Positions 1 to 16,001 of a stretch of DNA of 64,000 bases are shown piece after piece (positions within the stretch are counted from its first letter, which is position 1; each line of letters begins with the position of its first letter). The position numbers and the translations under genes are program-made. The DNA is from Reyranella sp. (GTDB lineage: Bacteria > Pseudomonadota > Alphaproteobacteria > Reyranellales > Reyranellaceae), in assembly GCF_965229815.1 (NCBI RefSeq), contig NZ_CBDDJN010000002.1, positions 1,741,562 to 1,805,561 of the forward strand, written 5' to 3'. A model generated the notes under the pieces. The model was given only the letters and a program-made list of their open reading frames with translations. It was not told where the DNA came from and did no database searches.

Positions 1-93
1 ACACGGTTCGACAAGCTCGCCCGAAACTATCTTGCCGCCGTCCTGCTCGCTTCCACCAGACTATGGCTTCGAACTTATGAGTCCACGACCTAG
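1..93 (+). mobile_element. IS5-family transposase C-terminus and right end of the element (truncated by window edge)
   Basis: Frame 1 reads [30 protein letters not shown], matching the IS5-family C-terminal signature (TRYDKLA.N(F/Y).A). It ends in ...TATGAGTCCACGACCTAG, an IS5-type terminus ending at CTAG. Confidence 0.85.
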
Positions 94-431
94 CCCGAGG
101 CGGCCGGTGACCGAGGGCCAAGGAGAATGACGGCGGTGCCCGCGAGGCAAAGGGCTGCCCCGATCATGTCCCAGCGATCGGGCCGCACGCCCTCCGCCAG
201 CCACAGCCAGATCAGGGCGGCGACGATATAGATGCCGCCATAGGCCGCGTAGCTGCGGCCGGCGTGCGCAACGTCGACCAGGGTGAGGAACCAGGCGAAC
301 AGGGCCAGGGACACCATGCCCGGCGCCAGCCACCAGGCCGACTTGCCCATCCGCAGCCACGCCCAGAACGTGAAGCATCCGGCAATCTCCGCGACCGCGG
401 CGCCGACGAAGGCGGCAAGTGACAGATTCAT
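90..431 (-). CDS. ynfA: YnfA/UPF0060 family small multidrug-resistance-like membrane protein
   Basis: 113 aa with four TM helices; motifs AEIAGC..W.WLR and [11 protein letters not shown], and W..EG.RPDRWD.IG. Confidence 0.92.
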
Positions 432-536
432 GCGATGGACTCCAGGGCGAAGGGCGATTCGCTCTCGACCCTATCAGACGGTGGGGAGGGCGGGTGGAGG
501 GATCGCGGCCCTGTTGGGCGGCGATCTCGATCTAGC

Positions 537-862
537 TCAGAGCGTAGCTGCCGGCTTGGTCCACATCGAAGTCGCACGTGTGAAGTTCATGAATCTCCCA
601 ACGCTGATCCGCATCCGAGGCTTCGCTGCCTCGGCCTCATTGAAGAGGCAAGTATGGCCTTAACAAAATGTTAAGAGGGGAACCATCTGAGGCTCCGCTG
701 CCTCGGATTCATTGAAGGAACCGATAGAGATTGTCGAGCAGGCGGCGCGTGACCCTATCCGAGGCCGTTGCAGCTTCGATCCCATGGAATCTCCGTCTTT
801 TGCCGACAGAGTGGCGACCCTTCGGTCGACCATCGAGACCTCGCATCCCGGTCTCTGCGACG
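537..862 (+). CRISPR. Degenerate orphan CRISPR mini-array with type I-G (I-U)-like repeat, about 5 repeats and 4 spacers
   Basis: Best repeat is 611-645, GCATCCGAGGCTTCGCTGCCTCGGCCTCATTGAAG (7-bp stem CCGAGGC/GCCTCGG, 3' CTCATTGAAG). The copy at 683-717 matches 30/35. Decayed copies lie at 755-790 (about 24/36), 829-862 (about 23 matches, two gaps) and 537-571 (14 of the last 20 nt). Repeat 3' ends fall at 571, 645, 717, 790 and 862 (period 72-74), with unique 37-39 nt spacers. Confidence 0.65.
660..674. promoter_or_regulatory. CtrA-binding consensus TTAA-N7-TTAA
   Basis: TTAA CAAAATG TTAA at 660-674 is an exact match to the established alphaproteobacterial CtrA box. It lies inside the 646-682 spacer. 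Confidence 0.55.
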
Positions 863-1023
863 GGCGTGACTGCACTGCAGTCATCAACATGTTGCGATTC
901 GGGGCCCGTCACGCTCTAGCCTTGGCCGTTCCCGGAGCCCAAAAAGTCGCAATAAAATGACCCTGCCTCTGGCGTCTGAGCACATCCCTTGAAATGAACT
1001 ATTACCCAAGTTATATTCCGGTC

Positions 1024-1548
1024 ATGACCGCCCAAGGCCGCCCCACCCTCTACGACCCCGAGCTCTGCGAGCCGGCGCACAACTACTGCCTGCTGGGTGC
1101 GACCAACGACGATCTGGCGGAATTCTTCGGCGTATCGCCCAGCACCATCGACAACTGGATCGCGCGCCATGCCGAATTCGGCGACGCGGTGCGGCGCGGT
1201 CGCGTCGTGGCCGACGCGCGGGTGGCGCGCGCGCTCTACGACCGCGCCGTTGGATTCGAGCGGCCAGTGGAGCGGCCAGTGGAGCGGCCAGTGGAGCGGT
1301 CCGTGATCGCGGGTGACGCGAAGACGGTCACGACCACGGTCTACTATCCGCCCAGCGTGGCGGCCTGCATCTTCTGGCTGCGTCACCGTCAGCGCAGCTC
1401 CTGGAGTGAATCCAGCCAGCTGGCGAAGGGCAGGGCGGTCGACGACCCCGCGGCGTTCGCCGATGACGACATCGCGCGGCTCGAGGCGGCAAGCGAGAGG
1501 GCGCGCCGCGGCGGCGAGGGCGCTGTCGGGGCAAGTGCCGGCGATTGA
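1024..1548 (+). CDS. Phage terminase small-subunit-like helix-turn-helix protein (orphan)
   Basis: GRPTLYDPE..A..YCLLGATNDDLAEFFGVSPSTIDNW..RH.EF..AVRRGR..AD..VARALYDRAVG resembles HTH-type small terminases. The start could be 994 or 1024. Confidence 0.6.
   Translation: MTAQGRPTLYDPELCEPAHNYCLLGATNDDLAEFFGVSPSTIDNWIARHAEFGDAVRRGRVVADARVARALYDRAVGFERPVERPVERPVERSVIAGDAKTVTTTVYYPPSVAACIFWLRHRQRSSWSESSQLAKGRAVDDPAAFADDDIARLEAASERARRGGEGAVGASAGD
1258..1299 (+). repeat. In-frame 12-bp tandem repeat (GAGCGGCCAGTG x3.5) encoding ERPV x3
   Basis: Exact units at 1258, 1270 and 1282, plus a partial unit at 1294. Confidence 0.95.
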
Positions 1549-1600
1549 GAGGCGGGCGCTCGCGCATCCGTCGATGCGCGCCGTATCGGGCGTCGCCGGC

Positions 1601-2599
1601 CTACGCCGCGCTGGCGTAGATCCGGTCGAGGTCGCCGTCGTCGTAGGCGTACTCGGTCGAGCAGAACTCGCACTTCACCGCGACGCGGCCCGACGGGTCG
1701 CGCATGTCGTCCAGCTCCTCGCGGCGGATCGCGCGCAGCACGCGGTCGATGCGCTCGCGGCTGCAGCGGCAGCGCGCGGCGAAGGGGCGGGGCGCGAAGC
1801 GGCGCGGCTGCTCGGCATGGAACAGCCGGTGCAGGAGGACCTCGCCCGGCAGGCCGGGATCGAGCATCTCGGCCTCGGTCGCCGAGGCCATCAGGATCAC
1901 CGCCTTGCGCCAGTCGTCCTCGCGCTGCTCCTGGTCGATGTCGAGGCGGCCGGCGTCGAACTCCGGCATCTGCTGCACCATCAGCGCGGCGGCCCGCCAG
2001 TGGCCGGCGCCGTCGGCGTCGACCGTGTGCTGCGCGGCGATCTTGATGCCGGTCGGCAGCTGCTCGGACTGGCGGAAATAGGTATGGGCGCAGTCGGCCA
2101 GGGTCGCGCCCTCGAGCGGCACGACGCCCTGGTAGCGCTCGGTGTGCTGGCCCTGGTCGACGGTGAAGGAGAGCCGCCCGCGGCCGAACAGGCGCGGCAC
2201 GTAGGCGTCCGGCGCCTCGCCCGCATGCAGCGGCTTGTCGCCGCCCTCGCCCAGCGCCACCGCCAGCTTCCAGGAATCGAACTGGGCGTAGCCGCGCAGG
2301 GCGCCGTCGCTGGTGAGGTCGGTGACGAGGAGGCGGACCGGCCCGTCGCCCGAGATCTGCAGGGTGAAGATGCCGTCGTACTTGAGCGAGGTGGCGAGCG
2401 CCGTGCACAGCGTCATCGCCTCCGCGAGCGGCCGCGCCACGGCCAGCGGATAGCCGTGGCGCTCGATCACCGCGTCGAGCGAGCGGCCGAGCCGCACCAG
2501 ACGCCCGCGCACGCCCAGCGCGTCGAGCTGGAACGGCAGCGCCTGGTCCCCTTCCGGCTTGTCGGCGTCGGAAGAGCGGAAGCCTTCCGACGATCCCAT
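1601..2599 (-). CDS. hslO: Hsp33 redox-regulated chaperone
   Basis: LPFQL...VRGRLVRL N-terminus; zinc motif CRCS...CEFC. The ATG at 2599 overlaps the argF stop (ATGA). Confidence 0.93.
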   Translation of the reverse strand: MGSSEGFRSSDADKPEGDQALPFQLDALGVRGRLVRLGRSLDAVIERHGYPLAVARPLAEAMTLCTALATSLKYDGIFTLQISGDGPVRLLVTDLTSDGALRGYAQFDSWKLAVALGEGGDKPLHAGEAPDAYVPRLFGRGRLSFTVDQGQHTERYQGVVPLEGATLADCAHTYFRQSEQLPTGIKIAAQHTVDADGAGHWRAAALMVQQMPEFDAGRLDIDQEQREDDWRKAVILMASATEAEMLDPGLPGEVLLHRLFHAEQPRRFAPRPFAARCRCSRERIDRVLRAIRREELDDMRDPSGRVAVKCEFCSTEYAYDDGDLDRIYASAA

Positions 2600-3525
2600 C
2601 AGGAAAGGCACCAGGCCAGGATGCTCTTCTGCGCGTGCAGGCGGTTCTCCGCCTCGTCGAACACGACCGACTGCGGCCCGTCGATGACGTCGGTCGTCAC
2701 CTCCTCGCCGCGATGGGCGGGCAGGCAATGCATGAAGATGGCGTCGGGCTTGGCCTGCTTCATCAGCCGGTCATCGACCTGGTACCCGCGCAGGAGGTTG
2801 TGGCGGCGCGCGGCGCTCGGGCTGTGCGGGTCCTCGTCGCCCATCGACACCCAGGTGTCGGTGACGACGCAGTCGGCGCCCTTCACGATCGATTCGGGAT
2901 CGTGGCCGATCGTGATGCGACCCTGCGACTTCGACGCCCAGTCGACCACGTCGGCCGGTGGCTTGAGCTCGGGCGGGCAGGCGACGCGCAGTTCGAAGTC
3001 GAACTGCACGGCGGCATGGATCCAGCTCGTCGCCATGTTGTTGCCGTCGCCCGACCAGGCGATCGACTTGCCCCGGATGGGACCGCGATGCTCCTCGTAG
3101 GTCATCACGTCGGCCATGAGCTGGCAGGGATGGGTCTTGTCGGTCAGGCCGTTGATGACCGGCACCGTCGCGTACTTCGCCATCTCGAGGAGCTTCTCCT
3201 CGACCGTCGTGCGCATCATGATGATGTCGACGTAGCGGCTGAGCACGCGCGCGGTGTCGGCGATCGTCTCGCCGCGGCCGAGCTGGGTGTCGGTGCGGCC
3301 GAGCATGATCGTCTGGCCGCCGAGCTCGCGCATGCCGACCTCGAACGACACGCGGGTGCGGGTCGAGGGCTTCTCGAAGATCATCGCGAGCGTCTTGCCG
3401 GCGAGCGGCTTGTCGTGCCCGCCGTTCGCCCGCGCCTTCTTCATCGCCTTGCCGTGATCCAGGATCTGGCGAAGCGTTTGCGGATCGACCTGGTCGAGGT
3501 CGAGGAAATGCTTGGGAACCGCCAT
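2599..3525 (-). CDS. argF: Ornithine carbamoyltransferase
   Basis: [20 protein letters not shown] and FMHCLPA motifs. Confidence 0.97.
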
Positions 3526-3528
3526 GGC

Positions 3529-4731
3529 CTACTCGGCGGCCTTGGTGGCACCCTGAGCCTCGGCCTCGAACGACTGCGCCGCCTTCTCGAGGATCGACAC
3601 GCCCTCGTCGAGGGCGGCCTTGTCGGCGATCAGCGCCGGGAAGACGCGGATCACGTTTTCCCCGGCGATCGGCACGAGCATGCCGAACGACATCAGCCGG
3701 TCGACCATGTCGCCGGCCGGCACGACGCAGCGCAGCCCCTGCAGGAAGCCGGTGCCGCGCGCCTCGGCGAAGACCTTGGGATGCTTCTTCACCAGCGCCT
3801 GGAGCTGTCCCTTGAGATACTCGCCGCGCTGGTGGACGCCGTCGAGGAAGCCCGGCTTCGTGATCTCGTCGAGCACCGCATTGGCCACGCCGGTGGCGAG
3901 CGGATTGCCGCCGTAGGTCGAGCCGTGCGTGCCCGGCACCATGCCGACGGCCGCCTTCTCGGTCGCCATGAAGGCGCCGATCGGGAAGCCGCCGCCCATG
4001 CCCTTGGCCACCGCCATGACGTCGGGCGCCACGCCCGACCATTCGTAGGCGAAGAGCTTGCCGGTGCGGCCGAAGCCGGTGTGGATCTCGTCGTAGAACA
4101 GCAGCAGGCCGAACTCGTCGCAGATCGCGCGCAGCGCCTTCAGGAAGTCGGTCGTGGTCTCGCGCACGCCGCCCTCGCCCTGGATCGGCTCGACCAGGAT
4201 GCCGGCCGTCTCGTCGTCGACCATGTCGCGCACGACGTTGGCGTTGTTCAGCGGCGCGTGGCGGTAACCCGCCGCCGGCGGGCCGAAGCCCTCCAGGTAC
4301 TTCTCGTTGCCGGTCGCCGCCAGCGCGTTCAGCAGCCGGCCGTGGAAGGCCGCCTGGAAGCAGATGATCTTGTAGCGCTTGGGCTTGCCGTTCACGTACT
4401 GGTACTTGCGGATCAGCTTGATGCCGCCCTCGATCGCCTCCGCGCCGGAATTGCAGAAGAACATCGTGTCGGCGAAGGTGAGCTCGGTGAGCCGCGTCGC
4501 CAGCTTCTCGCCGTTGCCGATCCGGTAGAGGTTCGACGTGTGCCAGAGCTTCTGGCCCTGCTCGGTCAGCGCCTTGACCAGGGCGGGATGGCAGTGGCCC
4601 AGCGCGTTCACGGCGATGCCGGACGTGAAGTCGAGAAAACGTCGGCCGTCCGTCGCGTAGAGATAGTTGCCCTCTCCGCGTTCGAACACGACGTCCTTGC
4701 GACCGTACGTCGGCATCACAGCCGTAATCAC
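3529..4731 (-). CDS. argD: Acetylornithine aminotransferase
   Basis: Class III PLP aminotransferase with FHGR, EPIQGEGG, DEIHTGFGRTG, AKGMGGGFPIG and HGSTYGGNP. GTG start with AGGAGG SD. Confidence 0.95.
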   Translation of the reverse strand: MITAVMPTYGRKDVVFERGEGNYLYATDGRRFLDFTSGIAVNALGHCHPALVKALTEQGQKLWHTSNLYRIGNGEKLATRLTELTFADTMFFCNSGAEAIEGGIKLIRKYQYVNGKPKRYKIICFQAAFHGRLLNALAATGNEKYLEGFGPPAAGYRHAPLNNANVVRDMVDDETAGILVEPIQGEGGVRETTTDFLKALRAICDEFGLLLFYDEIHTGFGRTGKLFAYEWSGVAPDVMAVAKGMGGGFPIGAFMATEKAAVGMVPGTHGSTYGGNPLATGVANAVLDEITKPGFLDGVHQRGEYLKGQLQALVKKHPKVFAEARGTGFLQGLRCVVPAGDMVDRLMSFGMLVPIAGENVIRVFPALIADKAALDEGVSILEKAAQSFEAEAQGATKAAE

Positions 4732-4812
4732 GGGGAACCTCCTGCAAAAGAAAACACCCTGCTTCGGGACCGCGGCGCCGGAACGGACAGACCGGGTCGA
4801 GCAGGGTCGGGC

Positions 4813-4841
4813 ACTATCTTATCCGCGTCCGGGTGTGTCAA
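4813..4841 (-). promoter_or_regulatory. Putative sigma70 promoter for argD-argF-hslO
   Basis: Minus strand reads TTGACA-N17-GATAGT, about 80 nt upstream of the argD start. Confidence 0.55.
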
Positions 4842-4864
4842 CGTGGCCCATCTGCTCGCTCTCG

Positions 4865-4970
4865 CTCATGCTCCTCTCCCCCGTCAGGGGGAGAGGTTGG
4901 GTGAGGGGGCCTGCTCCGTTGTCGCCCCCCTCACCTTGCCTCTCCCCCTAGCGGGGGAGAGGAACATGAG
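4865..4970. repeat. REP/MITE-like palindromic intergenic repeat, copy 1
   Basis: CTCATG...CATGAG termini enclose two CTCTCCCCC/GGGGGAGAG hairpins. It is an inverted near-copy of 23936-24043. Confidence 0.85.
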
Positions 4971-4989
4971 ATAGGAGACCCGCCTTCCG

Positions 4990-6732
4990 ATGACCGCCAC
5001 GCCGACCCGCAACGCCACGCTGGCTCTCAGGCGCGCCGATTTCCGATCGGTGCCGGAGATGCTCGGCTACGCCGCGCGCGGCGACACCGGTGTTACCTTT
5101 TATAGTGTCAGGGGCGAGATTCTCTCGACCCTCGCATGGCGCGACGTCGAGACGCGCGCGCAGGCGGTGGCGCGTCGGCTGATCGGCGCCGGCTTCCAGC
5201 GCGGCGAGCGCATCCTGGTGACGGCCGATACCTGGCCGGGCTTCTTCGACCTGTTCTTCGGCGCCCAGCATGCCGGCCTGCTGCCGGTGCCGGTCTCGGT
5301 GCCCGCCGGCATCGGCGGCAAGGACGCCTATGTCGAGCAGCTTCGCCGCCAGCTCAGCGCCTCGGGCGCGGTGGCCGCGATCGCCATCGACGAGCTGCGC
5401 GACTTCCTGCTCGAGGCGGCGCGCGACCTGCCGGCGGTGCGGCTGGCCGGCGGCATGGACGTCATCGAGGCGTTGCCCGATGCGGCCGTGGAGCTGCGGC
5501 CGCTCGGCCCCGACGAGCTCTGCTACATCCAGTTCTCCTCGGGCAGCACGCGCCATCCGCACGGCGTGCAGATCACCCAGGCGGCGCTGATGGCCAATCT
5601 CGCGGGCATCACCGGACCGGCAGGACTCGACGTCGTGGCCGGCGACCGCGCCGTGAGCTGGCTGCCGCTCTATCACGACATGGGACTGATCGGCTTCCTG
5701 ATGGCGCCGCTCAGCTGCCAGCTTTCGATCGACTATCTGACGCCGCGCGACTTCGCCCGGCGGCCGGCGCAGTGGCTGAACATCATCTCGCAAAATCGCG
5801 GCAGCATCGCCTACAGCCCGAGCTTCGGCTACGACCTCGCGGTCCGCCGCGGCGCCAGGCAGGCGCCGGACGATCTCGACCTGTCGAGCTGGCGCCATGC
5901 CGGCATCGGCGGCGACATGATCCGGCCCGACGTGCTCCAGCGCTTCGCCGAGACCTTCGCCGGCGCGGGCTTCGACCGCGGCGCCTTCATCCCGAGCTAC
6001 GGCATGGCCGAGGTCTGCCTCGCCATCACCTTCAGCCCGCACGGCACCGGCGTGCGCACCGACACGGTCGACCGCACCGCGCTGGCGCAGGAGCAGCGCG
6101 CCGTGCCGGCCGGCGACGCCGCCGACGAGCAGCGTGCCCGCCGCTTCGTGCTGTGCGGCCGCGTGCTGCCCGGCCATCGGCTCGAGGTCCGCGGCGCCGA
6201 CGGCGCGGTGCTGGCCGACCGCGCGGTGGGCCGCATCTTCGTGCAGGGGCCCAGCATCATGCCGGGCTACTTCGGCGCGCCCGAGGCCAGCGCCGAGGTC
6301 CTGTCGGCCGACGGCTGGCTCGACACCGGCGACCTCGGCTACACGCTGGCGGGCGAGATCGTCGTCACCGGCCGCGCCAAGGACCTCATCATCGTCAACG
6401 GCCGCAATGTCTGGCCGCAGGACATCGAATGGGCCATCGAGGCGCGCCGCGTCGTCAAGGGCGGCGATTCCGCGGCCTTCTCGGTCGATACCGGCGAGGG
6501 CGAGCGCGTCGTGGTGGCGGTGCTGGCGCGCGTGTCGGGCGACACGGCGCGCGAGGCGCTGGCCCGCGACGTTGCCGGCGTCGTGCGCGAAAGCGTCGCC
6601 GTCGACTGCGACGTCGTCCTGGTGCCGCCGTCGATGGGCCTGCCGACCACCTCCTCGGGCAAGCTCTCGCGCTCGCGCGCCAAGGCCAACTACCTGGCCG
6701 GCCTCTATGCCCCGAAGACGGCGGCGGCGTGA
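4990..6732 (+). CDS. Fatty acyl-AMP ligase / acyl-ACP synthetase of the sphingolipid cluster
   Basis: 580 aa adenylate-forming enzyme with YIQFSSGST, SWLPLYHDMGLIG, YGMAE, GWLDTGDLG and PTTSSGKLSR. Confidence 0.9.
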   Translation: MTATPTRNATLALRRADFRSVPEMLGYAARGDTGVTFYSVRGEILSTLAWRDVETRAQAVARRLIGAGFQRGERILVTADTWPGFFDLFFGAQHAGLLPVPVSVPAGIGGKDAYVEQLRRQLSASGAVAAIAIDELRDFLLEAARDLPAVRLAGGMDVIEALPDAAVELRPLGPDELCYIQFSSGSTRHPHGVQITQAALMANLAGITGPAGLDVVAGDRAVSWLPLYHDMGLIGFLMAPLSCQLSIDYLTPRDFARRPAQWLNIISQNRGSIAYSPSFGYDLAVRRGARQAPDDLDLSSWRHAGIGGDMIRPDVLQRFAETFAGAGFDRGAFIPSYGMAEVCLAITFSPHGTGVRTDTVDRTALAQEQRAVPAGDAADEQRARRFVLCGRVLPGHRLEVRGADGAVLADRAVGRIFVQGPSIMPGYFGAPEASAEVLSADGWLDTGDLGYTLAGEIVVTGRAKDLIIVNGRNVWPQDIEWAIEARRVVKGGDSAAFSVDTGEGERVVVAVLARVSGDTAREALARDVAGVVRESVAVDCDVVLVPPSMGLPTTSSGKLSRSRAKANYLAGLYAPKTAAA

Positions 6733-6740
6733 TTTCTCTT

Positions 6741-6907
6741 CTCCTCCCCGTCGCGGATTCCGCGATGGGGAGGTGCCGCCGGCAGCGGCGGCGGAGGGGT
6801 CATGAGCGCCATTATGGTTGCCCATGACCCCTCCGCCCGCTGCCGCGCCTGTGAAGGCGCTCACGCGGGCACCTCCCCCTCGCCGGATCGGCGACGGGGA
6901 GGGGGAG
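6741..6907. repeat. Second REP-like long palindromic element
   Basis: Outer arms CTCCTCCCCGTCGC / GCGACGGGGAGG, inner arms GGAGGGGTCATG / CATGACCCCTCC, and internal GGGGAGGTGCC / GGCACCTCCCC. Confidence 0.75.
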
Positions 6908-6917
6908 TATCGCGGCC

Positions 6918-7841
6918 ATGACCCTCGTCGCGGTCACCGGCGCGACCGGCTTCGTCGGGCCGCACCTGGTGGCGGCGCTGGGGCGGCGCGGCTTCCGGCT
7001 GCGCCTGCTGGTGCGGCGCTGGTCGCCGCTGCCGTCGCTGGACGGGGTCGATGCCGAGCTGGTCCTGGGCGACCTGGGCGACCGGCGGGCACTGGCCGCG
7101 CTGGTCGACGGCGCCGATGCCGTCATCCATGCCGCCGGCCTGATCAAGGCGCGCCGGCCGGCCGACTTCATGGCGGTCAACCGCGACGGCACGGCGCTTC
7201 TGTCGGCGCTGGCGCCCGACGCCACCTTCCTCCTCCTGTCGTCGCTGGCCGCCCGCGAGCCGTCCCTCTCGGCCTATGCCGCCAGCAAGCAGGCGGCCGA
7301 GGCGGCCGTGGCCAGCCGGCCGGGCCGCTGGCTGGCCGTGCGCGCGCCCGCGGTCTACGGGCCGGGCGACCGCGAGACCCTGGCCTATTTCAAGGCGGTC
7401 GCCCGGGGTCTCGCCCCCGAACCCCGGGTCGCGGAGGCGCGCCTGTCGCTGATCCACGTGGCCGACCTGGCCGAGGCACTGGCCCGGACGGTCGCGGCCC
7501 CGCCGCCGCCCGGGGGCTACGAGATCGACGACGGCCACCCGGGGGCCTACGGCTACGGCGACATGGCCGCCGCCGCCGGCCGGGCATTGGGGCGCGAGCC
7601 TTTTCGCTTGGCGGTCCCGCGGGCCGTCATGGCGGCGGTCGCCGGCGCCAATGGACTTTTGCAGACCCTGGGCGGGCCGGTCCGCATCCTGACCCCGGGG
7701 AAGGTGCGCGAGATCTTCCATCCCGACTGGACGGCCCACGACCGGCGGCTGGCGGCAGCGATCGGCTGGCGGGCGCGTTACGACCTGGAGGCCGGATTCC
7801 GCGAGACGATCTTGTGGTACCGGCGGCAGCGGTGGCTCTAG
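6918..7841 (+). CDS. cerR: NAD-dependent epimerase/dehydratase, probable CerR-type oxo-ceramide reductase
   Basis: GATGFVG Rossmann motif, SS..A...YAASK catalytic motif and VYGPGD. It sits next to acp and spt as in the Caulobacter ceramide locus. Confidence 0.7.
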   Translation: MTLVAVTGATGFVGPHLVAALGRRGFRLRLLVRRWSPLPSLDGVDAELVLGDLGDRRALAALVDGADAVIHAAGLIKARRPADFMAVNRDGTALLSALAPDATFLLLSSLAAREPSLSAYAASKQAAEAAVASRPGRWLAVRAPAVYGPGDRETLAYFKAVARGLAPEPRVAEARLSLIHVADLAEALARTVAAPPPPGGYEIDDGHPGAYGYGDMAAAAGRALGREPFRLAVPRAVMAAVAGANGLLQTLGGPVRILTPGKVREIFHPDWTAHDRRLAAAIGWRARYDLEAGFRETILWYRRQRWL

Positions 7842-7844
7842 AGG

Positions 7845-7880
7845 TTGTGAAACACTGCGTAACAATTTGTCATTTCACAA
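7845..7880. promoter_or_regulatory. AT-rich inverted repeat TTGTGAAA-N20-TTTCACAA (candidate operator or internal promoter)
   Basis: Perfect 8-bp inverted arms in the AT-rich gap between cerR and acp. Confidence 0.4.
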
Positions 7881-7958
7881 GGAATCACCGTTTCTGTCAG
7901 AAGGACGTTGTCTTACCCCGAGACTTTGGAGAGACGCGTTTTGCGCACCGCCCACGAA

Positions 7959-8255
7959 ATGACCGTCGAAAACGGCGGCATCCTCGACACCCTCGCCGCC
8001 CCGCAGATCTTCTCGCGGGCGGAGGTGATTCGGGAAATCTGTGTCCATCTCGAACCCTACCGGGTCGGCGAAAGACCGATCACGGGCGGCACGGTGATTG
8101 CCAAGGACCTGACCATCGATTCGCTCGCGATCATGGACATGGTCATGGAGCTCGAGGATCGCTTCGACGTTTCCATTCCCATGGGCGTCATCGCCGAGAT
8201 CCACACGGTCGACCAGCTCGCCGACACGATCCGGGAGCTCGGCGCCCGCGGCTAG
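7959..8255 (+). CDS. acp: Acyl carrier protein dedicated to sphingolipid synthesis
   Basis: DLTIDSLAIMDMVMELEDRFDVSIP contains the phosphopantetheine DSL serine. The start is uncertain (7908 or 7959). Confidence 0.9.
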   Translation: MTVENGGILDTLAAPQIFSRAEVIREICVHLEPYRVGERPITGGTVIAKDLTIDSLAIMDMVMELEDRFDVSIPMGVIAEIHTVDQLADTIRELGARG

Positions 8256-8310
8256 GCGGCCGCCGGGACACCGTCATTGAAAATCGGACGCGGGTAGGGG
8301 AGCTCGTCAC

Positions 8311-9537
8311 ATGGGCTTGTTCGACCGACACGCCGGCCTGCTCGAGGCCTACCGCGACGTCCGGACCACCGGCTACGACCCGTTCCAGATCCGCATGGAG
8401 CGGGTCCTGTCGCCGACCGAGGCGATCATCAACGGCCGCAAGACGCTGCTGGTCGGGACGAACAATTATTTCGGCCTGACCTTCGACCCGTCCTGCATGG
8501 AAGCGGCGATCGAGGCGATTCGCGCCGAGGGCACCGGCACGACCGGCTCGCGCATCGCCAACGGCTCCTACAGCGAGCACGTCGCGCTCGAGAAGGAGAT
8601 CGCCGAGTTCTACGGCAAGAAGCACTGCATGGTGTTCACCACCGGCTACCAGGCCAATCTCGGGGTGATCGCCACGCTGGGCGGCGAGGGCGACTTCCTG
8701 CTGATCGACGCCGACAGCCACGCCTCGATCTACGACGCCTGCAAGATGACCCAGGCCGAGGTCGTGCGCTTCAAGCACAACGACCCGTCGAGCCTGGAGG
8801 CGCGCCTGCGCCGCCTTGGTGATCGGCCGGGCAACCGCATCGTCGTGCTCGAGGGCATCTACTCGATGCTGGGCGACAGCGCGCCGCTCGTCGAGTTCAT
8901 CGACGTCTGCAAGAAGTACGGCGCCTACGTGCTGATCGACGAGGCCCATTCGCTGGGCGCCTTGGGCGATCACGGCCGCGGCCTCTGCGAGAAGGCGGGC
9001 GTGCTCGACGACTGCCACTTCATCGTCGGCACCTTCTCCAAGACGCTGGGCGCCATCGGCGGCTACTGCGTCTCGGACGATCCCGACTTCGACATCCTGC
9101 GCGTCACCGTCCGCTCCTACATGTTCACGGCGTCGCTGCCGCCCTCGATCGTCGCCTCGGTGCGCCAGGCGCTGCGGGTCGTGAAGGCACGGCCCGAGCT
9201 TCGCACGCAGCTCTGGGACAATGTCGCCACGCTCTACGACGGTCTGAAGGCGCGCGGCTTCACGCTCGGTCCCGAGCACGGCCCGGTGGTCGGCGTGCAC
9301 CTGCCCGACCGCACCACGGCCATCGGCTTCTGGCGGGCGATGCTGGACGCCGGCATCTACGTCAACGTCGCGGTGCCGCCGGCCACGCCCAACGGCGTGT
9401 CCCTGCTGCGCTGCTCGCTCTGCGCCGTGCACACGCGCGAGCAGCTCGAGCACATGGTCGAGGTCATGACCGGGATCGCCCGGCAGTTCGGCGTCCTTCC
9501 CACCGAGCCCCAGCTGCGCGCCGCCGGCGCCCGCTGA
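8311..9537 (+). CDS. spt: Serine palmitoyltransferase (alpha-oxoamine synthase family)
   Basis: GTNNYFGLT, GTGTTGSRIANG, DEAHSLG and PLP-lysine motif GTFSK (SPT-type). Flanked by ACP and other ceramide genes. Confidence 0.85.
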   Translation: MGLFDRHAGLLEAYRDVRTTGYDPFQIRMERVLSPTEAIINGRKTLLVGTNNYFGLTFDPSCMEAAIEAIRAEGTGTTGSRIANGSYSEHVALEKEIAEFYGKKHCMVFTTGYQANLGVIATLGGEGDFLLIDADSHASIYDACKMTQAEVVRFKHNDPSSLEARLRRLGDRPGNRIVVLEGIYSMLGDSAPLVEFIDVCKKYGAYVLIDEAHSLGALGDHGRGLCEKAGVLDDCHFIVGTFSKTLGAIGGYCVSDDPDFDILRVTVRSYMFTASLPPSIVASVRQALRVVKARPELRTQLWDNVATLYDGLKARGFTLGPEHGPVVGVHLPDRTTAIGFWRAMLDAGIYVNVAVPPATPNGVSLLRCSLCAVHTREQLEHMVEVMTGIARQFGVLPTEPQLRAAGAR

Positions 9538-9543
9538 GGCGCG

Positions 9544-10479
9544 ATGTTCACCCTCGCGCACCTGTCCGATCCGCATCTGCCGATGCCGCCGGCGCGGCCG
9601 CTCGAGCTCGTCGGCAAGCGGGCGACCGGATACTTCAACTGGTGGCGCAGCCGCGTGCGCGTGCATGTCCCCGAGGCGCTGGCCGCCATCGTGGCCGACA
9701 TCGCGCGGCAGGCGCCGGACCATGTCGCGCTCACCGGCGATCTCGTGAACATCTCGCTGGGCACCGAGTTCGAGGTGGCGGCGCGCTGGCTTGCGACGCT
9801 GGGGCCGCCCGACCGCGTCACCGTCGTGCCCGGCAACCATGACGTCTATGTCGCGACCGCCTGGCCGCTGAGCCTCGGCCTGTGGGGCGCCTACATGGCG
9901 GGCGACGGCCAGCCGGCGGCGCAGGGCTTCGACACCTTCCCGATCGTGCGCCGGCGCGGACCCGGCAGCGAAGGGGTCGCCCTCCTCGGCCTGTCGAGCG
10001 GCGTTCCGAAGCCGCCGTTCTTCGCGACCGGCACGCTGGGCGAGGCCCAGCTCGCGCGCGCCGAGCGGCTGCTGGCCGAGCTCGGCGGCGAGGGGCTCTG
10101 CCGGGTCGTGCTGATCCACCATCCGCCGCTCACCACCGAGAAGCACTTCAAGCGGCTGACCGACGCCGCCGCCTTCCAGGCGATGATCCGCCGGGTCGGC
10201 TGCGAGCTGGTGCTGCACGGCCACAACCATCGCAGCGAGGTGGCGCGCATCGCCGGTCCCGACGGGCCGGTGCCGGTGATCGGCGTCACGTCCGCGTCGG
10301 CCGCGCCGGACAGTCCCTACGGCCGCGCCCGCTACCACCTGATCCGCATCGCCCGCACCGGCGCGGGCTGGCGCATCGACGTCGCCCTGCGCGCGCTCCG
10401 GCCCGACGGGGCGGGCTGCGAGCCGGACGGCAATCTCGTGTTCCACAGCGGCGGCGGCCTCGCCGCGCTGGCCGCCTGA
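9544..10479 (+). CDS. Calcineurin-like metallophosphoesterase (CpgA-like by position)
   Basis: SDPH, GDLVN, PGNHD, HH and HGHNH metal-binding motifs; directly downstream of spt. Confidence 0.88.
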   Translation: MFTLAHLSDPHLPMPPARPLELVGKRATGYFNWWRSRVRVHVPEALAAIVADIARQAPDHVALTGDLVNISLGTEFEVAARWLATLGPPDRVTVVPGNHDVYVATAWPLSLGLWGAYMAGDGQPAAQGFDTFPIVRRRGPGSEGVALLGLSSGVPKPPFFATGTLGEAQLARAERLLAELGGEGLCRVVLIHHPPLTTEKHFKRLTDAAAFQAMIRRVGCELVLHGHNHRSEVARIAGPDGPVPVIGVTSASAAPDSPYGRARYHLIRIARTGAGWRIDVALRALRPDGAGCEPDGNLVFHSGGGLAALAA

Positions 10480-10496
10480 GGGCGGCCCGGACCCTC

Positions 10497-11642
10497 ATGA
10501 GCGCAGCCGACATCGTGGTGTCGCCGGTCACGGACAAGGCCGGCCTCAAGGCCTTCATCGAGCTGCCCAAGCGGCTCTATGCCGGGCACAAGGGCTACAT
10601 CCCCCATCTCGACACCGAGCGGCGCGAGGCCTTCACGCCCGGCAAGAACCCATTGTTCGGCCATGTCGAGGTCGCCTTCTTCCTCGCCCGCCGCGCCGGC
10701 CACGTGGTCGGCCGCATCACAGCTCAGATCGATTCTGTCTCTCTCGAGCGCTACCAGGACGCCACCGGCCACTTCGGCTGCCTGGCGGCCGAGGACGATC
10801 CGGCGATCTTCGCCGCCCTGTTCGCGGCGGCCGAGGGCTGGCTGCGATCGAAGGGCATGAAGCGGGCGACCGGCCCGTTCAGCCTGTCGATCAACGAGGA
10901 GGTCGGGCTGCTGGTCTGGGGCTTCGACAGCCGTCCGGTCCTGCTGACGCCCTACGATCCGCCCTGGTCGGGCCCGCGCGTCGAGGGCTGCGGCTACGCC
11001 AAGCTGAAGGACGTCTTCTCCTACGACTACGACGTCCAGAACGCGCCCGAGACGATCGGCGCCAAGCTGATGGCGCGGGCGGGCATGGCCGGCCGGGTCA
11101 AGGTGCGCTCCGCCGACATGAAGTTGTTCGACGCCGAGGTCCGCACCCTGGTCAACATCTTCAATGACGCCTGGAGCGACAACTGGGGCTTCGTGCCCTT
11201 CACCCAGGCCGAGATCGACCACGCCTCCAAGGCCTTCGGGCCGGTGATCGTGCCCGACCTCGCGGTGTTCGTGGAGGTCGACGACGAGGCCGTGGCCTTC
11301 ATCGTCGCGCTGACCAACCTCAACGAGGCGATCGCCGAGTTCAACGGCCGGCTGGGTCCGGTCAACCTGGTGAAGCTCCTGTGGCGGCTCAAGATCGCCG
11401 GCGTCGGCAGCACCCGCGTGCCGCTGATGGGGGTGAAGAAGCGGTTCCGCAACCATCCGCTGATGGGGGCGGGACTCGCCATGATGGCGATCGACACGCT
11501 GCGGGCCAACGGCAAGCGGCTGGGCAAGACCAGCGCCGAGCTGGGCTGGATCCTCGAGGACAACAAGGCCACCAACAACATCATCCGCTCGGTGGGCGGG
11601 GTGCACTACAAGACGCACCGGATCTACGAGAAGGCTTTGTGA
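10497..11642 (+). CDS. bcerS: Bacterial ceramide synthase-like GNAT N-acyltransferase (often annotated dATP pyrophosphohydrolase)
   Basis: 381 aa; FLARR.G..VGRI.A, GPFSLSINEEVGLL.GF, FNDAWSDNWGFVP and ELGWILEDN fit the bCerS family, and it lies within an spt cluster. Confidence 0.75.
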   Translation: MSAADIVVSPVTDKAGLKAFIELPKRLYAGHKGYIPHLDTERREAFTPGKNPLFGHVEVAFFLARRAGHVVGRITAQIDSVSLERYQDATGHFGCLAAEDDPAIFAALFAAAEGWLRSKGMKRATGPFSLSINEEVGLLVWGFDSRPVLLTPYDPPWSGPRVEGCGYAKLKDVFSYDYDVQNAPETIGAKLMARAGMAGRVKVRSADMKLFDAEVRTLVNIFNDAWSDNWGFVPFTQAEIDHASKAFGPVIVPDLAVFVEVDDEAVAFIVALTNLNEAIAEFNGRLGPVNLVKLLWRLKIAGVGSTRVPLMGVKKRFRNHPLMGAGLAMMAIDTLRANGKRLGKTSAELGWILEDNKATNNIIRSVGGVHYKTHRIYEKAL

Positions 11643-12898
11643 ACGCCCCGGCCGACGGCGCCGGGCCGCCGCCGGCGCGGCCGCATTCCGCCTTCGCCCC
11701 GCTCGCCAACCGCGCCTTCCTGGCGCTGTGGATCGCCAACCTCCTGTCCAACACCGGCGGCTGGATGCAGACCACGGGCGCGGCCTGGGAAATGACCAGC
11801 CTGACGGCCGAGCCGATCTTCGTCGCCCTGCTGGCGGCGTCGGGCACGCTGCCCATGTTCCTGTTCTGCTTCCTGGCCGGCATCCTGGCCGACCGCTTCG
11901 ACCGCCGCCGCTACATCATCGCCTGCCAGGTCTGGATGATGGCCGTGGCCGCCACGCTGGCGGTGCTGGCCTTCCTCGGCCGGCTGGACCACTGGAGCCT
12001 GCTGGCGCTCAGCTTCTGCATGGGGCTCGGCAACGCCATGAACGCCCCGGCCTGGCACGCCATCGTGCCCGAGATCGTGTCGGGACCGATGCTGCGGCCG
12101 GCGATCGCGCTGAACAGCGCAGGCTTCAACCTCGCCCGCACCGTGGGCCCGGTGGTCGGCCAGATCCTGCTCGGGCTGGTCGGCGTCTTCCTCCTCTTCG
12201 CCATCAACGCGCTGACCTATGTCGGCGTCATCCTGGCGATGACGGGCTGGCGGCGGCCGGCCGAAGCCCATGCCGCCCAGCGCCGCGAGGGCTTCGCCGA
12301 GGCGGCCCGCTCGGGCATCGCCTTCGTGCGCGCCAACGGCGATCTCAAGGCCATCTTCGCTCGCGGCCTGTGCTTCTTCCTGCCGGGAATCGCCATCGCC
12401 ACGCTGCTGCCGGTGATCGGCCGGTTCGAGCTCGGGCTGGACGAGTTCGCCTTCGGCATCCTCTACGCCGTGTTCGGAGCCGGGGCGGTCAGCGGCGCCA
12501 TCCTGATGTCGACCGCCAACCGCCTGCTCGGCCCCGACCGCGCCAACATCTGGGCGATGGGAATCCACGCGGCCGTCACGCTGATCGCCGCGCTCGATCT
12601 CACACCGACTGTCGTCGGCGCCTGCGTCGCCGTCACGGGCGCCTGCTGGATCACGGTCATCGCCAACAACGGCGCGGCGGTGCAGATGATCCTGCCCAAC
12701 TACATGCGGGCCCGCGGCATGGCGGTCCACCAGATGGTGTTCTTCGGCGCCATGGTCGCGGGCGCGCTGCTGTGGGGGAAGATCGCCACGCTGCTCGGCT
12801 CGCAGGCGGCGCTGATCATCTCGGCCGGCCTGCTGGTCCCGGCGACCGTGCTGGCGGCGTCGATCCGTCTGCCCGGCTCGTCGCTGCCGCGCGCCTGA
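11639..12898 (+). CDS. MFS transporter (MFS_3 / H+ antiporter type)
   Basis: About 12 TM helices; F.ALWIANLLSNTGGWMQ, G.LADRFDRR and LPNYMRARG. The GTG start overlaps the bcerS stop (GTGA). Confidence 0.9.
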   Translation: MNAPADGAGPPPARPHSAFAPLANRAFLALWIANLLSNTGGWMQTTGAAWEMTSLTAEPIFVALLAASGTLPMFLFCFLAGILADRFDRRRYIIACQVWMMAVAATLAVLAFLGRLDHWSLLALSFCMGLGNAMNAPAWHAIVPEIVSGPMLRPAIALNSAGFNLARTVGPVVGQILLGLVGVFLLFAINALTYVGVILAMTGWRRPAEAHAAQRREGFAEAARSGIAFVRANGDLKAIFARGLCFFLPGIAIATLLPVIGRFELGLDEFAFGILYAVFGAGAVSGAILMSTANRLLGPDRANIWAMGIHAAVTLIAALDLTPTVVGACVAVTGACWITVIANNGAAVQMILPNYMRARGMAVHQMVFFGAMVAGALLWGKIATLLGSQAALIISAGLLVPATVLAASIRLPGSSLPRA

Positions 12899-13075
12899 TC
12901 CTGTGATGGCGTGACCACAAGAGACGTAAAAATTTGCCAGTCGGGGCAGAATCTTCTTGCGATGGCGTCGATTAGTTGTAGATAGCGAATTGAAAGACGC
13001 CCACGCACGTGCCGCTGGCCCATAGTGGTTACGCAACGACGGAAAGCGTCCTTTTTGGCAGTGCCGGCGCAAGCC

Positions 13076-13256
13076 GGGTCCGGGAAGGAGCTTCTGAGAT
13101 GGTTGCTTACCGTGCGGGGCGCGTACCCCGCTATTATGTCGATTGCCCGGTGAACCAGGACCGGGCCTTCTTGACCGCTCCTTCGCTGCTGCAGACCCGG
13201 ACTCCGTCGAGTATCGGCTGACGCCGCTGCCGTCACGGCACCGCGCGTCACTTTTC
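13076..13256 (+). promoter_or_regulatory. Structured 5' leader of ornithine decarboxylase (candidate cis-regulatory RNA/attenuator)
   Basis: Nested stems 13076-13084/13196-13204 and 13084-13091/13177-13184; hairpins 13114-13131 and 13145-13166; then a terminator-like hairpin 13219-13250 followed by CTTTT. Confidence 0.55.
13099..13221 (+). CDS. Candidate 40-aa leader peptide (uORF) upstream of ornithine decarboxylase
   Basis: ATG at 13099 with a strong GGAAGGAG SD. Peptide is MVAYRAGRVPRYYVDCPVNQDRAFLTAPSLLQTRTPSSIG. Confidence 0.3.
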   Translation: MVAYRAGRVPRYYVDCPVNQDRAFLTAPSLLQTRTPSSIG

Positions 13257-13305
13257 GACGTCTGCAGAACCCATCCTCATTGGATTGACGGGGAACCCCC
13301 CAGCG

Positions 13306-14436
13306 ATGACCGAGCGTATTTTTCGTTATCTCCGCGAGCAGCAGCCCGAGACGCCGTGCCTGGTGATGGATCTCGACGTGGTCGAGCACAACTTCCGGCG
13401 CATGCGTGAGCTGCTGCCGGCGGCGCACATCTTCTACGCCGTGAAGGCCAACCCGGCGGCGCAGATCCTGTCGCGCCTGTCGGGCCTGGGCTCGAAGTTC
13501 GACACCGCGAGCCGCGGCGAGATCGAGCTCGTCCAGGCGACCGGCGTCGGCATGGACCGCGTCTCCTTCGGCAACACGATCAAGAAGGAAAAGGACATCG
13601 CCTGGGCCTACCAGCAGGGCGTCCGCCTGTTCGCGTTCGACAGCGAGGCCGAGCTGCAGAAGCTCGCCCGCTCGGCGCCGGGCTCGCGCGTCTTCTGCCG
13701 CGTGCTGGTCGACTGCGGCGGCGCCGAGTGGCCGCTCAGCAAGAAGTTCGGCTGCGCGCCGGAGATGGCCAAGGACCTGCTGCGCAAGGCCAAGGAGTGG
13801 GGGCTCGACGCCTACGGCATCTCCTTCCATGTCGGCAGCCAGCAGACCGACCTCGAGCAGTGGGACCGCGCGCTGGGCCAGGTCTCGCAGATGTTCTTCG
13901 CGCTCGCCGAGGCCGGCGTCGACCTGCGGATGGTCAACATGGGCGGCGGCTTCCCGGCCCGCTACCGCGCCGAGGTCAACAGCATCGAGGCCTACTGCGA
14001 GGCGGTCGGCCGCGCGCTGGTGCGCCACTTCGGCAACCGCATGCCCGAGGTCATCATCGAGCCGGGCCGCTCCATGGTCGGCGATGCCGGCGTGATCCAG
14101 AGCGAGGTCGTGCTGGTGTCGCGCAAGGCGGCCAACGATCGCAAGCGCTGGGTCTACCTCGACATCGGCAAGTTCTCGGGCCTCGCCGAGACGATGGACG
14201 AGAGCATCAAGTACCGCGTGCGCACGGCGCGCGACGGCACGCGCGTGGGCCCCGTGGTGCTGGCCGGCCCGACCTGCGATTCGGCCGACATCCTCTACGA
14301 GAAGACCGAGTACAAGCTGCCGCTGGCGCTGAAGCCCGGCGACAAGGTCGAGATCCTGTCGACCGGCGCCTACACGACGACCTACTCGTCGGTGGCGTTC
14401 AACGGCTTCTCGCCGCTCAAGGCGATCTGCATCTAA
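13306..14436 (+). CDS. odc: Ornithine decarboxylase (fold III PLP, Orn/Lys/Arg group IV)
   Basis: FYAVKANP, FDTAS.GEI, KFG, SFHVGSQ, NMGGGFP, EPGR, GPTCDSAD and GAY motifs. Confidence 0.93.
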   Translation: MTERIFRYLREQQPETPCLVMDLDVVEHNFRRMRELLPAAHIFYAVKANPAAQILSRLSGLGSKFDTASRGEIELVQATGVGMDRVSFGNTIKKEKDIAWAYQQGVRLFAFDSEAELQKLARSAPGSRVFCRVLVDCGGAEWPLSKKFGCAPEMAKDLLRKAKEWGLDAYGISFHVGSQQTDLEQWDRALGQVSQMFFALAEAGVDLRMVNMGGGFPARYRAEVNSIEAYCEAVGRALVRHFGNRMPEVIIEPGRSMVGDAGVIQSEVVLVSRKAANDRKRWVYLDIGKFSGLAETMDESIKYRVRTARDGTRVGPVVLAGPTCDSADILYEKTEYKLPLALKPGDKVEILSTGAYTTTYSSVAFNGFSPLKAICI

Positions 14437-14461
14437 GCCTCGTTCCACCTCAGGGACGAAC

Positions 14462-14495
14462 CGACGGGGCCTTGAGAAAGGCCCCGTCGCCGTTT
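14462..14495 (+). terminator. GC-rich hairpin between odc and hss
   Basis: Perfect 11-bp stem GACGGGGCCTT/AAGGCCCCGTC with a GAGA loop; only a short T tract follows. Confidence 0.6.
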
Positions 14496-14527
14496 ATCGA
14501 CCACCTTCAACAAGGCAGGGACACGAA

Positions 14528-15958
14528 ATGGCGAAGACCGTCGCGCGGAAGAAGTACCTCGATTTCAAGGGACGCATGGTGATGATCGGCTTCGGCTCGA
14601 TCGGCCAGGGCGTGCTGCCGCTGATCCTGAAGCATATCGGCATCAAGCCGCGCCAGATCACGGTGATCGCCGAGGATGACCGCGGCGGCCTGCCCGAGAC
14701 CGAGCGCTACGGCATCGAGTTCATCCAGAAGCGCCTGACCAAGGCCAACTACCGGCAGATGCTGGCCGGCCGGCTCGCCAAGGGCGACTTCCTCGTCAAC
14801 CTGTCGGTCGAGGTCGCCTCGACCGCGCTGGTCGAGCTCTGCCAGGAGAAGGGCGCCTTCTACATCGACACCTGCATCGAGCCGTGGCCCGGCGGCTACA
14901 CCGACCCCAGCCTGTCGGTGTCGCTGCGCTCCAACTACGCGCTGCGCGAGACGATGCTGAAGCTGAAGCCCAGGTACGCGGGCGGGCCGACGGCGGTGAT
15001 CGCGCACGGCGCCAATCCCGGCCTGGTGTCGCACTTCACCAAGCAGGCGCTGCTCAACATCGCGCGCGACACCGGCGTCAAGACGGCGGTTCCGAAGACC
15101 CGCGAGGCGTGGGGGCGGCTGGCGCGCCGGCTGGGCGTGAAGGTCATCCACGTCGCCGAGCGCGACACCCAGGTCTCGCCAATCCCGAAGGAGGTCGGCG
15201 AGTTCGTCAACACCTGGTCGATCGACGGCTTCGTCTCCGAAGGCAGCCAGCCGGCCGAGATGGGCTGGGGCACGCACGAGAAGGCGCTGCCACCCGACGG
15301 CGCGCGCCACAAGTTCGGCTGCGGCGCGGCGATCTACCTGAACCGGCCCGGCCTGCTCACGCGCGTGCGCACCTGGACGCCGCTCGAGGGGCCGTTCCAC
15401 GGCTTCATCATCACCCACAACGAGTCGATCTCGATGGCCGACTACTTCACCCTGCGCGACGGCGCCAAGGTGCTGTACCGGCCGACCGTGCACTATGCCT
15501 ACCATCCGTGCGACCAGGCGATCATGTCGATGCACGAGTGCGCGGGGAAGAACCTCCGCCAGCAGAAGCGCCAGCGCCTGATCGTCGACGAGATCGTCTC
15601 GGGCCGCGACGAGCTCGGCGTGCTGCTGATGGGCCACAAGAAGGGCGCCTACTGGTACGGCTCGCAGCTCGACATCAAGGAGACGCGCAAGCTTGCGCCC
15701 TACAACAACGCGACCTCGATCCAGGTCTGCGCGCCCGTCCTGTCGGGCATCATCTGGGCGCTGGAGAATCCCGATCGCGGCGTCGTCGAGGCCGACGAGA
15801 TGGACTTCGCCCGCAACCTCGAGATCTGCATGCCCTATCTCGGGCCGGTGGTCGGCAAGTACAGTGACTGGACGCCGCTCAAGGACCGCGGCGGGCTGTT
15901 CCCCGAGAAGCTCGACACGCGCGATCCCTGGCAGTTCCAGAACTTCCGCGTGAACTGA
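14528..15958 (+). CDS. hss: Homospermidine synthase
   Basis: IGFGSIGQG, YIDTCIEPW, HGANPGLVSHF, NTWSIDGF.SEG.QPAE.GWG, HNESIS, HYAYHPC and NATSIQV. Confidence 0.96.
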   Translation: MAKTVARKKYLDFKGRMVMIGFGSIGQGVLPLILKHIGIKPRQITVIAEDDRGGLPETERYGIEFIQKRLTKANYRQMLAGRLAKGDFLVNLSVEVASTALVELCQEKGAFYIDTCIEPWPGGYTDPSLSVSLRSNYALRETMLKLKPRYAGGPTAVIAHGANPGLVSHFTKQALLNIARDTGVKTAVPKTREAWGRLARRLGVKVIHVAERDTQVSPIPKEVGEFVNTWSIDGFVSEGSQPAEMGWGTHEKALPPDGARHKFGCGAAIYLNRPGLLTRVRTWTPLEGPFHGFIITHNESISMADYFTLRDGAKVLYRPTVHYAYHPCDQAIMSMHECAGKNLRQQKRQRLIVDEIVSGRDELGVLLMGHKKGAYWYGSQLDIKETRKLAPYNNATSIQVCAPVLSGIIWALENPDRGVVEADEMDFARNLEICMPYLGPVVGKYSDWTPLKDRGGLFPEKLDTRDPWQFQNFRVN

Positions 15959-15969
15959 CGACGATGCCG

Positions 15970-16001
15970 GCGGCGGTCCTTTCCGTGGGAAGGACCGCCG
16001 C
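15970..16001. terminator. Probable bidirectional terminator hairpin between convergent genes
   Basis: 12-bp stem GCGGCGGTCCTT/AAGGACCGCCGC. Confidence 0.65.

Follow-up and report, generated by a model that had tools for sequence, protein, structure and literature searches.

A CtrA-like box within a spacer of a degenerate type I-G CRISPR array remnant beside hslO in Reyranella sp.

The 64-kb stretch of Reyranella sp. DNA analysed here, referred to below as the window, carries a short array of direct repeats close to the hslO gene, and one of the spacers of this array, S1, contains a perfect palindromic match to the binding consensus of CtrA, the alphaproteobacterial cell-cycle master regulator. 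Our analysis makes it quite probable that the region 611–863 is what is left of the trailer end of a type I-G array of clustered regularly interspaced short palindromic repeats (CRISPR), with the box carried along as a passenger in one of its old spacers. Most likely the box arose by accident in foreign DNA rich in AT and does not represent a regulatory link. According to this explanation, a type I-G array would once have stood beside hslO in a Reyranella-like alphaproteobacterium. The locus would then have lost its cas genes, its leader and its younger spacers, and three old spacers would remain together with two repeats that can still fold and two that are badly eroded. S1 would have been acquired from AT-rich foreign DNA, and its TTAA-N7-TTAA would be either a product of chance in AT-rich sequence or the fossil of a CtrA site in a promoter of the donor. 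In its present place the box would have no role, neither as a guide for interference nor as an operator. The repeats would decay progressively toward the trailer, with R1 and R2 lying nearest to the part of the array that was active last, and the good preservation of these two would be due to this gradient.

Spacer S1 is flanked by two direct repeats with a period of 72 nt (repeat family D5), followed on the right by two eroded copies (Table 1). Local alignment scores to the repeat fall from 68 for R1 and 54 for R2 to 28 for R3, a value that was reached by none of 2000 random window segments, and 24 for R4 (p ~0.011). Repeat quality thus drops steadily rightward, which is the trailer side judging from the orientation of the repeats. 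Hairpin folding gave −14.1 kcal/mol for R1 and −15.0 kcal/mol for R2, and no stable hairpin was left in R3 or R4. R2 is altered in the handle region (CCTC to ATTC) and also differs from R1 in its terminal bases. A further candidate repeat to the left of R1 (R0) is 3 nt out of register and was left as doubtful.

The layout of R1 is a 7-bp stem followed by 4 nt and an 8-nt handle. In type I-G systems, Csb2 cleaves the 36-nt repeat 4 nt 3′ of its 7-bp hairpin, the cut leaves an 8-nt 5′ handle and the protospacer-adjacent motif (PAM) is TTN (PMC9638904). The repeat core, CCGAGGC-N6-GCCTCGGCCTCATTGAA, was found in at least 119 loci in a scan of one genome per species. Many of these are long arrays with a period of 72–76 nt, and among the matches listed the core-bearing loci come from Alphaproteobacteria, Betaproteobacteria, Binatia, Nitrospirales and others. 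Hundreds of repeats in real arrays have exactly the 30-nt core of R1; the TTCGCT loop variant of R1 is the consensus of none of the arrays among the matches listed (119 arrays). On the + strand, R1 also matched the Rfam family CRISPR-DR16 (RF01330) with 29.1 bits (E 5e-4 in 3 kb), which lies below the gathering score of that family (35). Nothing in the Rfam scan of the window attained a gathering score, and the window has no tRNA genes.

That the direct repeats are paired by chance, or are some other repeated intergenic element unrelated to CRISPR, might be argued from the presence of only two well-conserved copies and from the Rfam score. We regard this as virtually impossible: repeats with the same core recur by the hundreds in real arrays, the length, period, hairpin and handle are exactly those of type I-G, and a relative has a full array with cas genes at the syntenic position. 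Together with the layout of unique spacers between constant repeats, these observations effectively refute a non-CRISPR origin and bear out the first-pass annotation, which had described the AT-rich stretch as a CRISPR spacer of the I-G type.

The relative in question is the Reyranella sp. metagenome-assembled genome (MAG) D3_Bin_12, represented by positions 1–16000 of one contig (L110 and L116). Its hslO, argF and argD genes are 86.6% identical to window positions 1603–4295. In this MAG, 65 repeats adjoin hslO and are oriented like those of the window, the last repeat being truncated on the hslO side, and the leader side carries genes for Cas2 (PF09827), a Cas4–Cas1 fusion (PF01930 + PF01867), GSU0053/Csb1 (PF09617) and GSU0054/Csb2 (PF09609), which is the type I-G set. 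The remnant in the window thus occupies the position at which the full type I-G array of the relative has its trailer end. The two loci have no spacers in common. Inserted between cas4-cas1 and csb1 of the MAG (L116, 3864–4666) is a pair of genes for a Gp49-like protein (PF05973) and an HTH_37 protein (PF13744), a layout of a toxin–antitoxin pair inside a type I-G cas locus.

The machinery that accompanies the array in D3_Bin_12 is missing from the vicinity of the remnant. When the Cas2, Cas4–Cas1, Csb1 and Csb2 proteins of the MAG were used as tblastn queries, no homologue was found in the window (best E 0.19) and none in a 2.3-kb extension to the left. The extension comes from a metagenome contig (L120) that is 100% identical to window positions 1–1508 and adds 2,289 nt leftward; moving left from the array, it shows ynfA, a CTAG-flanked insertion sequence (IS) of the IS5 family, a 150-nt copy of the hslO 3′ end and a small unknown gene. 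Thus, the locus lacks the adjacent type I-G cas operon (cas3, cas8u, csb1, csb2, cas4-cas1, cas2), and it also lacks a leader upstream of the first repeat: window positions 432–610 aligned to the leader of the relative with a score of 16 (null 18.7 ± 2.7), and no promoter-like site was predicted in this segment.

A more advanced stage of loss is seen in a 2.4-kb assembly contig (L121) that was found via the closest homologue of the gene to the right of the remnant, which encodes a helix-turn-helix (HTH) protein resembling phage terminase small subunits (terS-like). Identity between L121 and the window is 98.7% in the hslO 3′ end, 95.7% over 862–1023 and 93% over 801–861 (part of S3 plus R4); in the terS-like gene it is 90% for the 5′ half and 66% for the 3′ half. 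The alignment begins at 801, and to the left of this point L121 runs, with 91.5% identity, into the sequence that lies beyond the hslO 3′ fragment in the genome of the window, retaining ~15 nt of that fragment. The IS, ynfA, R1–R3 and spacer S1 with its box are all absent from L121, which retains one degenerate repeat, the terS-like gene and its conserved upstream region. Loss of the motif in orthologous loci, named at first pass as an observation that would speak against a function of the box, is therefore seen in L121: the box and the spacer have been deleted, and in the sole close orthologous locus available the box is dispensable. At seven more distant terS-like loci (L124–L130), which are non-syntenic and lie in paralogous contexts, neither repeats nor a box were found.

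The three loci form a series, from a cas operon and 65 repeats in D3_Bin_12, through four repeats in the window, to one degenerate repeat in L121. The repeat family, the shared synteny with a complete array, the lack of cas genes and of a leader nearby, the loss of S1 in a relative and the lack of database targets are shown here, while the order of events and the lack of function are inferred.

As for the box, the 37-mer at 646–682 that the first-pass annotation had quoted as the spacer reads exactly as given there, including its AT-richness, the TTAA-N7-TTAA at 660–674 and TTAAC on both strands, but its left boundary had to be moved. Because the repeat of the relatives is 36 nt long and ends in ATTGAAGC, base 646 is the final base of R1, and the spacer proper comprises the 36 nt at 647–682. 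Its GC content of 41.7% compares with ~70% for the window. The box, TTAACAAAATGTTAA, is symmetric, with TTAAC at 660–664 on the + strand and GTTAA at 670–674, which is TTAAC on the − strand. A motif scan confirmed that it is the sole full TTAA-N7-TTAA in the window, where base composition predicts 0.018 such sites; none of 100 dinucleotide-preserving shuffles of the window yielded one. Even the TTAA tetramer occurs only three times (34 expected from composition), two of these being in S1. The third TTAA is at ~22560, and the scarcity of the tetramer is probably due to a very high GC3 (third codon position) bias in codon usage.

TTAA-N7-TTAA is the published CtrA consensus (PMC9437464, PMC11264516, PMC7200025). 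Pili- and flagellotropic alphaproteobacterial phages have clusters of CtrA sites in their promoter regions, which are bound and regulated by CtrA (PMC9437464). The earlier statements that the box fits the CtrA consensus and that such sites occur in promoters of alphaproteobacterial phages are thus both supported by the latter source.

The host genome, however, is the wrong null for a spacer. When the bases of S1 itself were shuffled, the box appeared with a frequency of 3.6e-4. A set of 1,502 unique spacers, taken from the at least 119 loci with the same repeat core, contained one other box (0.19 expected from composition); any TTAA was present in 29 of them, and 2.8% were as AT-rich as S1. 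A box-bearing spacer is therefore roughly a 1-in-1,500 to 1-in-3,000 event, which is rare for any single spacer and expected when thousands are scanned. In general terms, perfect consensus sites for a transcription factor occur in spacers at about the rate that composition predicts.

No target of the spacer was identified in the collections searched. BLAST of the 37-mer and of window positions 520–870 returned nothing significant from collections of phages (50,697 records) and plasmids (72,556 records). Exact 19–22-mers of S1, a 22-mer of S2 and the stretch upstream of R1 had no match in IMG/VR, and a 20-mer from the centre of S1 had none in the JGI metagenomes. The window has no second copy of S1 at up to three mismatches. 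Accordingly, the absence of a partial self or phage target, which the first-pass annotation had also listed as contrary evidence, is observed as far as these databases reach, the self-search being that of the window. A spacer match to a mobile element with a TTN PAM, few mismatches being tolerated, was likewise not obtained. The 20-mer from the 5′ end of S1 did match one JGI metagenome contig (L122), where it falls in the part of a small lipoprotein gene that encodes the signal peptide. This candidate was dismissed as chance: identity ends after 20–21 nt, the site is preceded by CGG instead of TTN and, by our estimate, ~1 chance match of a 20-mer is expected in this collection (241 million records). 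The top phage match was an intergenic GGCCTTAACAAAAGGTTTACAGG in the 208-kb Caulobacter phage RBC57 (L123 401–427; PV231353.1 86689–86715), with 23 of 27 bases identical, located ~50 nt upstream of a phage gene and itself close to a CtrA box (TTAA-N7-TTTA). With E = 6 it is within chance and was rejected as a homologous target.

These data bear on the possibility that S1 was taken from a CtrA-regulated promoter of an alphaproteobacterial phage, a gene-transfer-agent-like element or a plasmid. The box would still be idle at the present locus, which makes this proposal compatible with the explanation favoured above and a refinement of its part on the origin of S1. Clusters of CtrA sites in phage promoters (PMC9437464) are consistent with it, as is the composition of S1, which is AT-rich like intergenic or promoter DNA and is matched in this by few spacers of the family; the RBC57 site, although not significant, is just such an intergenic sequence upstream of a gene. 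Even so, no significant phage, plasmid, viral-contig or metagenome match was found, boxes are not clearly enriched in spacers of the family (1 versus 0.19 expected) and the RBC57 match is no better than chance. On balance we consider such a donor plausible but rather unlikely.

Any continuing use of S1, be it through a CRISPR RNA (crRNA) of a distant type I-G system acting on a promoter with a CtrA box or through CtrA timing the transcription of the remnant, appears very improbable. The first of the two functional proposals made at first pass was that the crRNA guides a Cascade to a CtrA-regulated promoter of the host or a phage. The mini-array would still have to be transcribed, its transcript being processed by type I-G machinery from another locus of the genome. 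R1 and R2 do hold 7-bp hairpins and near-consensus handles, and the inspected sequence amounts to ~66 kb of the genome. Nevertheless, effector and other cas genes are not found nearby, there is no leader, the repeats are decaying, the handle region and terminal bases of R2 have changed and the loop variant is not that of any listed array. There is also no near-copy of the spacer in the window and no target in the collections searched, and L121 has deleted the spacer altogether. This reading is not supported, and we consider it highly unlikely.

The second proposal, that the captured spacer became a CtrA operator whose selection explains the good preservation of the flanking repeats, is not supported either. 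A perfect consensus may well bind phosphorylated CtrA (CtrA~P) in vitro, possibly without consequence, and the box lies in a 590-nt intergenic stretch between the divergent ynfA and terS-like genes, either of which might be the regulated gene. However, the box is ~230 nt from the start of ynfA and ~350 nt from that of the terS-like gene, while the site of CtrA-activated promoters is usually at −35 (PMC11264516). No promoter-like hexamers adjoin the box, the sole predicted promoter being a sigma-70-like TTGAAA-17-TATATT at 989–1017, upstream of the terS-like gene. The conserved region upstream of that gene begins 3′ of the array and is retained in L121 without the box, and seven further terS-like homologues have no upstream box. 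The region 862–1023, which also contains a perfect palindrome, TGACTGCACTGCAGTCA, at 870–886, is thus the conserved control region of the terS-like gene, and the box is not. Furthermore, selection acting on an operator of 15 bp would leave the 36-nt repeats flanking it unprotected, and the gradient of decay that is usual along arrays accounts for R1 and R2 being the best copies. Compared with what is seen at functional CtrA sites, the sequence agrees with the consensus at 660–674, yet the box is inside a spacer instead of at a promoter position and is not conserved, being absent from L121, from the different spacers of D3_Bin_12 and from the seven terS-like loci. An operator at this place is therefore extremely doubtful.

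Several points weigh against the view of the box as a passenger in a dead stump. Against the background of the host, a perfect symmetric TTAAC-N5-GTTAA is very unusual. R1 and R2 still form good hairpins, which in principle would allow a Csb2 from another locus to act on a transcript; a type I-G locus may exist elsewhere in the genome, the cas search having covered the window and 2.3 kb. The comparison with close relatives rests on one orthologous locus, L121, which is a short read-assembly contig. Finally, the database searches needed exact seeds of 19–22 nt or BLAST words of 11, and a protospacer with multiple mismatches would have been missed; because R2 departs from R1 at 6 of its 36 positions, S1 has probably drifted too.

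Table 1. Features of the array remnant and its surroundings (window coordinates; the dot marks a feature without strand).
Feature	Position	Strand	Description	Remarks
IS5-family right end	1..92	+	transposase 3′ end and terminal inverted repeat, CTAG flank	L120 extension
ynfA (UPF0060 membrane protein)	90..431	−	PF02694, E 2e-34	directly left of remnant; not in L121
Doubtful repeat R0	536..570	+	perhaps no repeat	score 22, p ~0.034, offset 75 nt, no hairpin
Repeat R1	611..646	+	36 nt: GCAT/CCGAGGC/TTCGCT/GCCTCGG/CCTC/ATTGAAGA	best preserved, type I-G-type
Spacer S1	647..682	+	36 nt, 41.7% GC, GGCAAGTATGGCCTTAACAAAATGTTAAGAGGGGAA	no significant database match
CtrA-like box	660..674	.	TTAACAAAATGTTAA, TTAA-N7-TTAA	unique in window; putative site by consensus
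Repeat R2	683..718	+	36 nt, CCATCTGAGGCTCCGCTGCCTCGGATTCATTGAAGG	6 differences from R1; G-U pair retains hairpin
Spacer S2	719..754	+	~36 nt, GC-rich	in register between R2 and R3
Repeat R3	755..791 (about)	+	strongly degenerate, 1-nt insertion	alignment to repeat
Spacer S3	792..829	+	~38 nt	L121 homology starts at 801
Repeat R4	830..863 (about)	+	degenerate terminal repeat, in register	also retained in L121
terS-like upstream region	862..1023	+	95.7% identical to L121	palindrome and promoter
HTH protein, phage terminase small subunit-like (terS-like)	1024..1548	+	PHROG 309, E 1.4e-36	
hslO (Hsp33)	1601..2728	−	PF01430	synteny anchor; 3′ end faces remnant, as in full-array Reyranella MAG

The surroundings of the remnant show traces of mobility. 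The 3′ end of hslO is present in two copies with 91% identity, one at window positions 1596–1745 and the other at 1370–1521 of L120 (reverse complement), ~770–920 nt to the left of the window start. Between these copies lie the IS, ynfA, the remnant of the array and the terS-like gene, and the duplication looks like the att-type mark of an island integrated into the hslO 3′ end. In the Reyranella MAG this site is occupied by a complete type I-G CRISPR-Cas locus, so that an island bearing CRISPR may have its integration hotspot at hslO. The IS5-family element consists of window positions 1–92 and L120 (reverse complement) positions ~1540–2289, and its DUF4096 transposase gene is apparently in two frames. 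It has imperfect terminal inverted repeats, GGTTCTGTACTCATAAAG and GGTCGTGGACTCATAAG, with CTAG at both ends, and its insertion point is the stop codon of ynfA.

In the terS-like protein, a match to the Pfam family HTH_23 is under the cutoff of that family. The gene contains a perfect 12-nt tandem repeat, GAGCGGCCAGTG, in 3.5 copies at 1258–1299, which encodes (ERPV)n and is not present in the L121 homologue. The upstream region of the gene (862–1023) could be an operator or a small RNA; it has no Rfam match.

The other 60 kb of the window is ordinary chromosome, with genes of arginine and polyamine metabolism, a sphingolipid-type cluster, a sugar ATP-binding cassette transporter, glucan enzymes of the GlgE/TreS type and DsbD, among others. 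No ctrA was seen among the genes of the window. Between argD and an acyl-CoA ligase gene, positions 4865–4970 hold a 45-nt inverted repeat (87% complementary, arms 16 nt apart) built of two CCTCTCCCCC...GGGGGAGAGG palindromes, which resembles a repetitive extragenic palindromic (REP)-type element or a bidirectional terminator. The cluster at 4990–9537 encodes an AMP-binding acyl ligase, an NAD-dependent epimerase/reductase, an acyl carrier protein and a class I/II aminotransferase of the alpha-oxoamine-synthase type, an arrangement reminiscent of the sphingolipid (serine palmitoyltransferase) clusters of bacteria.

A link between CRISPR and the CtrA-controlled cell cycle would be new biology if true, but the evidence points the other way. 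What the three loci offer instead is a view of a type I-G CRISPR island, at the hslO 3′ end in Reyranella, in successive stages of decay. Should the donor of S1 be found, the spacer could reveal that this little-studied lineage of soil and freshwater is also attacked by phages whose promoters are under CtrA control.

Compared with the type I-G arrays of Thioalkalivibrio sulfidiphilus and Geobacter sulfurreducens (PMC9638904), the remnant has the same 36-nt repeat with a 7-bp stem followed by 4 nt, the same 8-nt handle of the ATTGAAG type and 36-nt spacers, and its repeat core is identical to that of the array found beside cas2, cas4-cas1, csb1 and csb2 in the syntenic Reyranella locus. It differs from them in consisting of two good and two degenerate repeats without a leader and without cas genes in ~66 kb. 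The Rfam family CRISPR-DR16 (RF01330) is also among the closest relatives, but the repeat of the window scores under its gathering cut-off. The box shares with CtrA sites in host and phage promoters the exact full consensus and the symmetric TTAAC half-sites, but, unlike them, it lies in a CRISPR spacer, is not at −35 of a recognizable promoter and is not present in a close relative. Arrays without cas genes have been reported in many bacterial genomes. There is no sign in the remnant of the secondary uses of orphan arrays, such as processing by another system or a role as a small RNA. Like other orphan or degenerate arrays left after the loss of cas genes, it is short, has no adjacent cas genes and carries mutated repeats, with traces of mobile elements nearby (the IS5-family element and the duplicated hslO 3′ end) and with related strains at different stages of loss; in all these respects it is an ordinary degenerate remnant of an orphan array.

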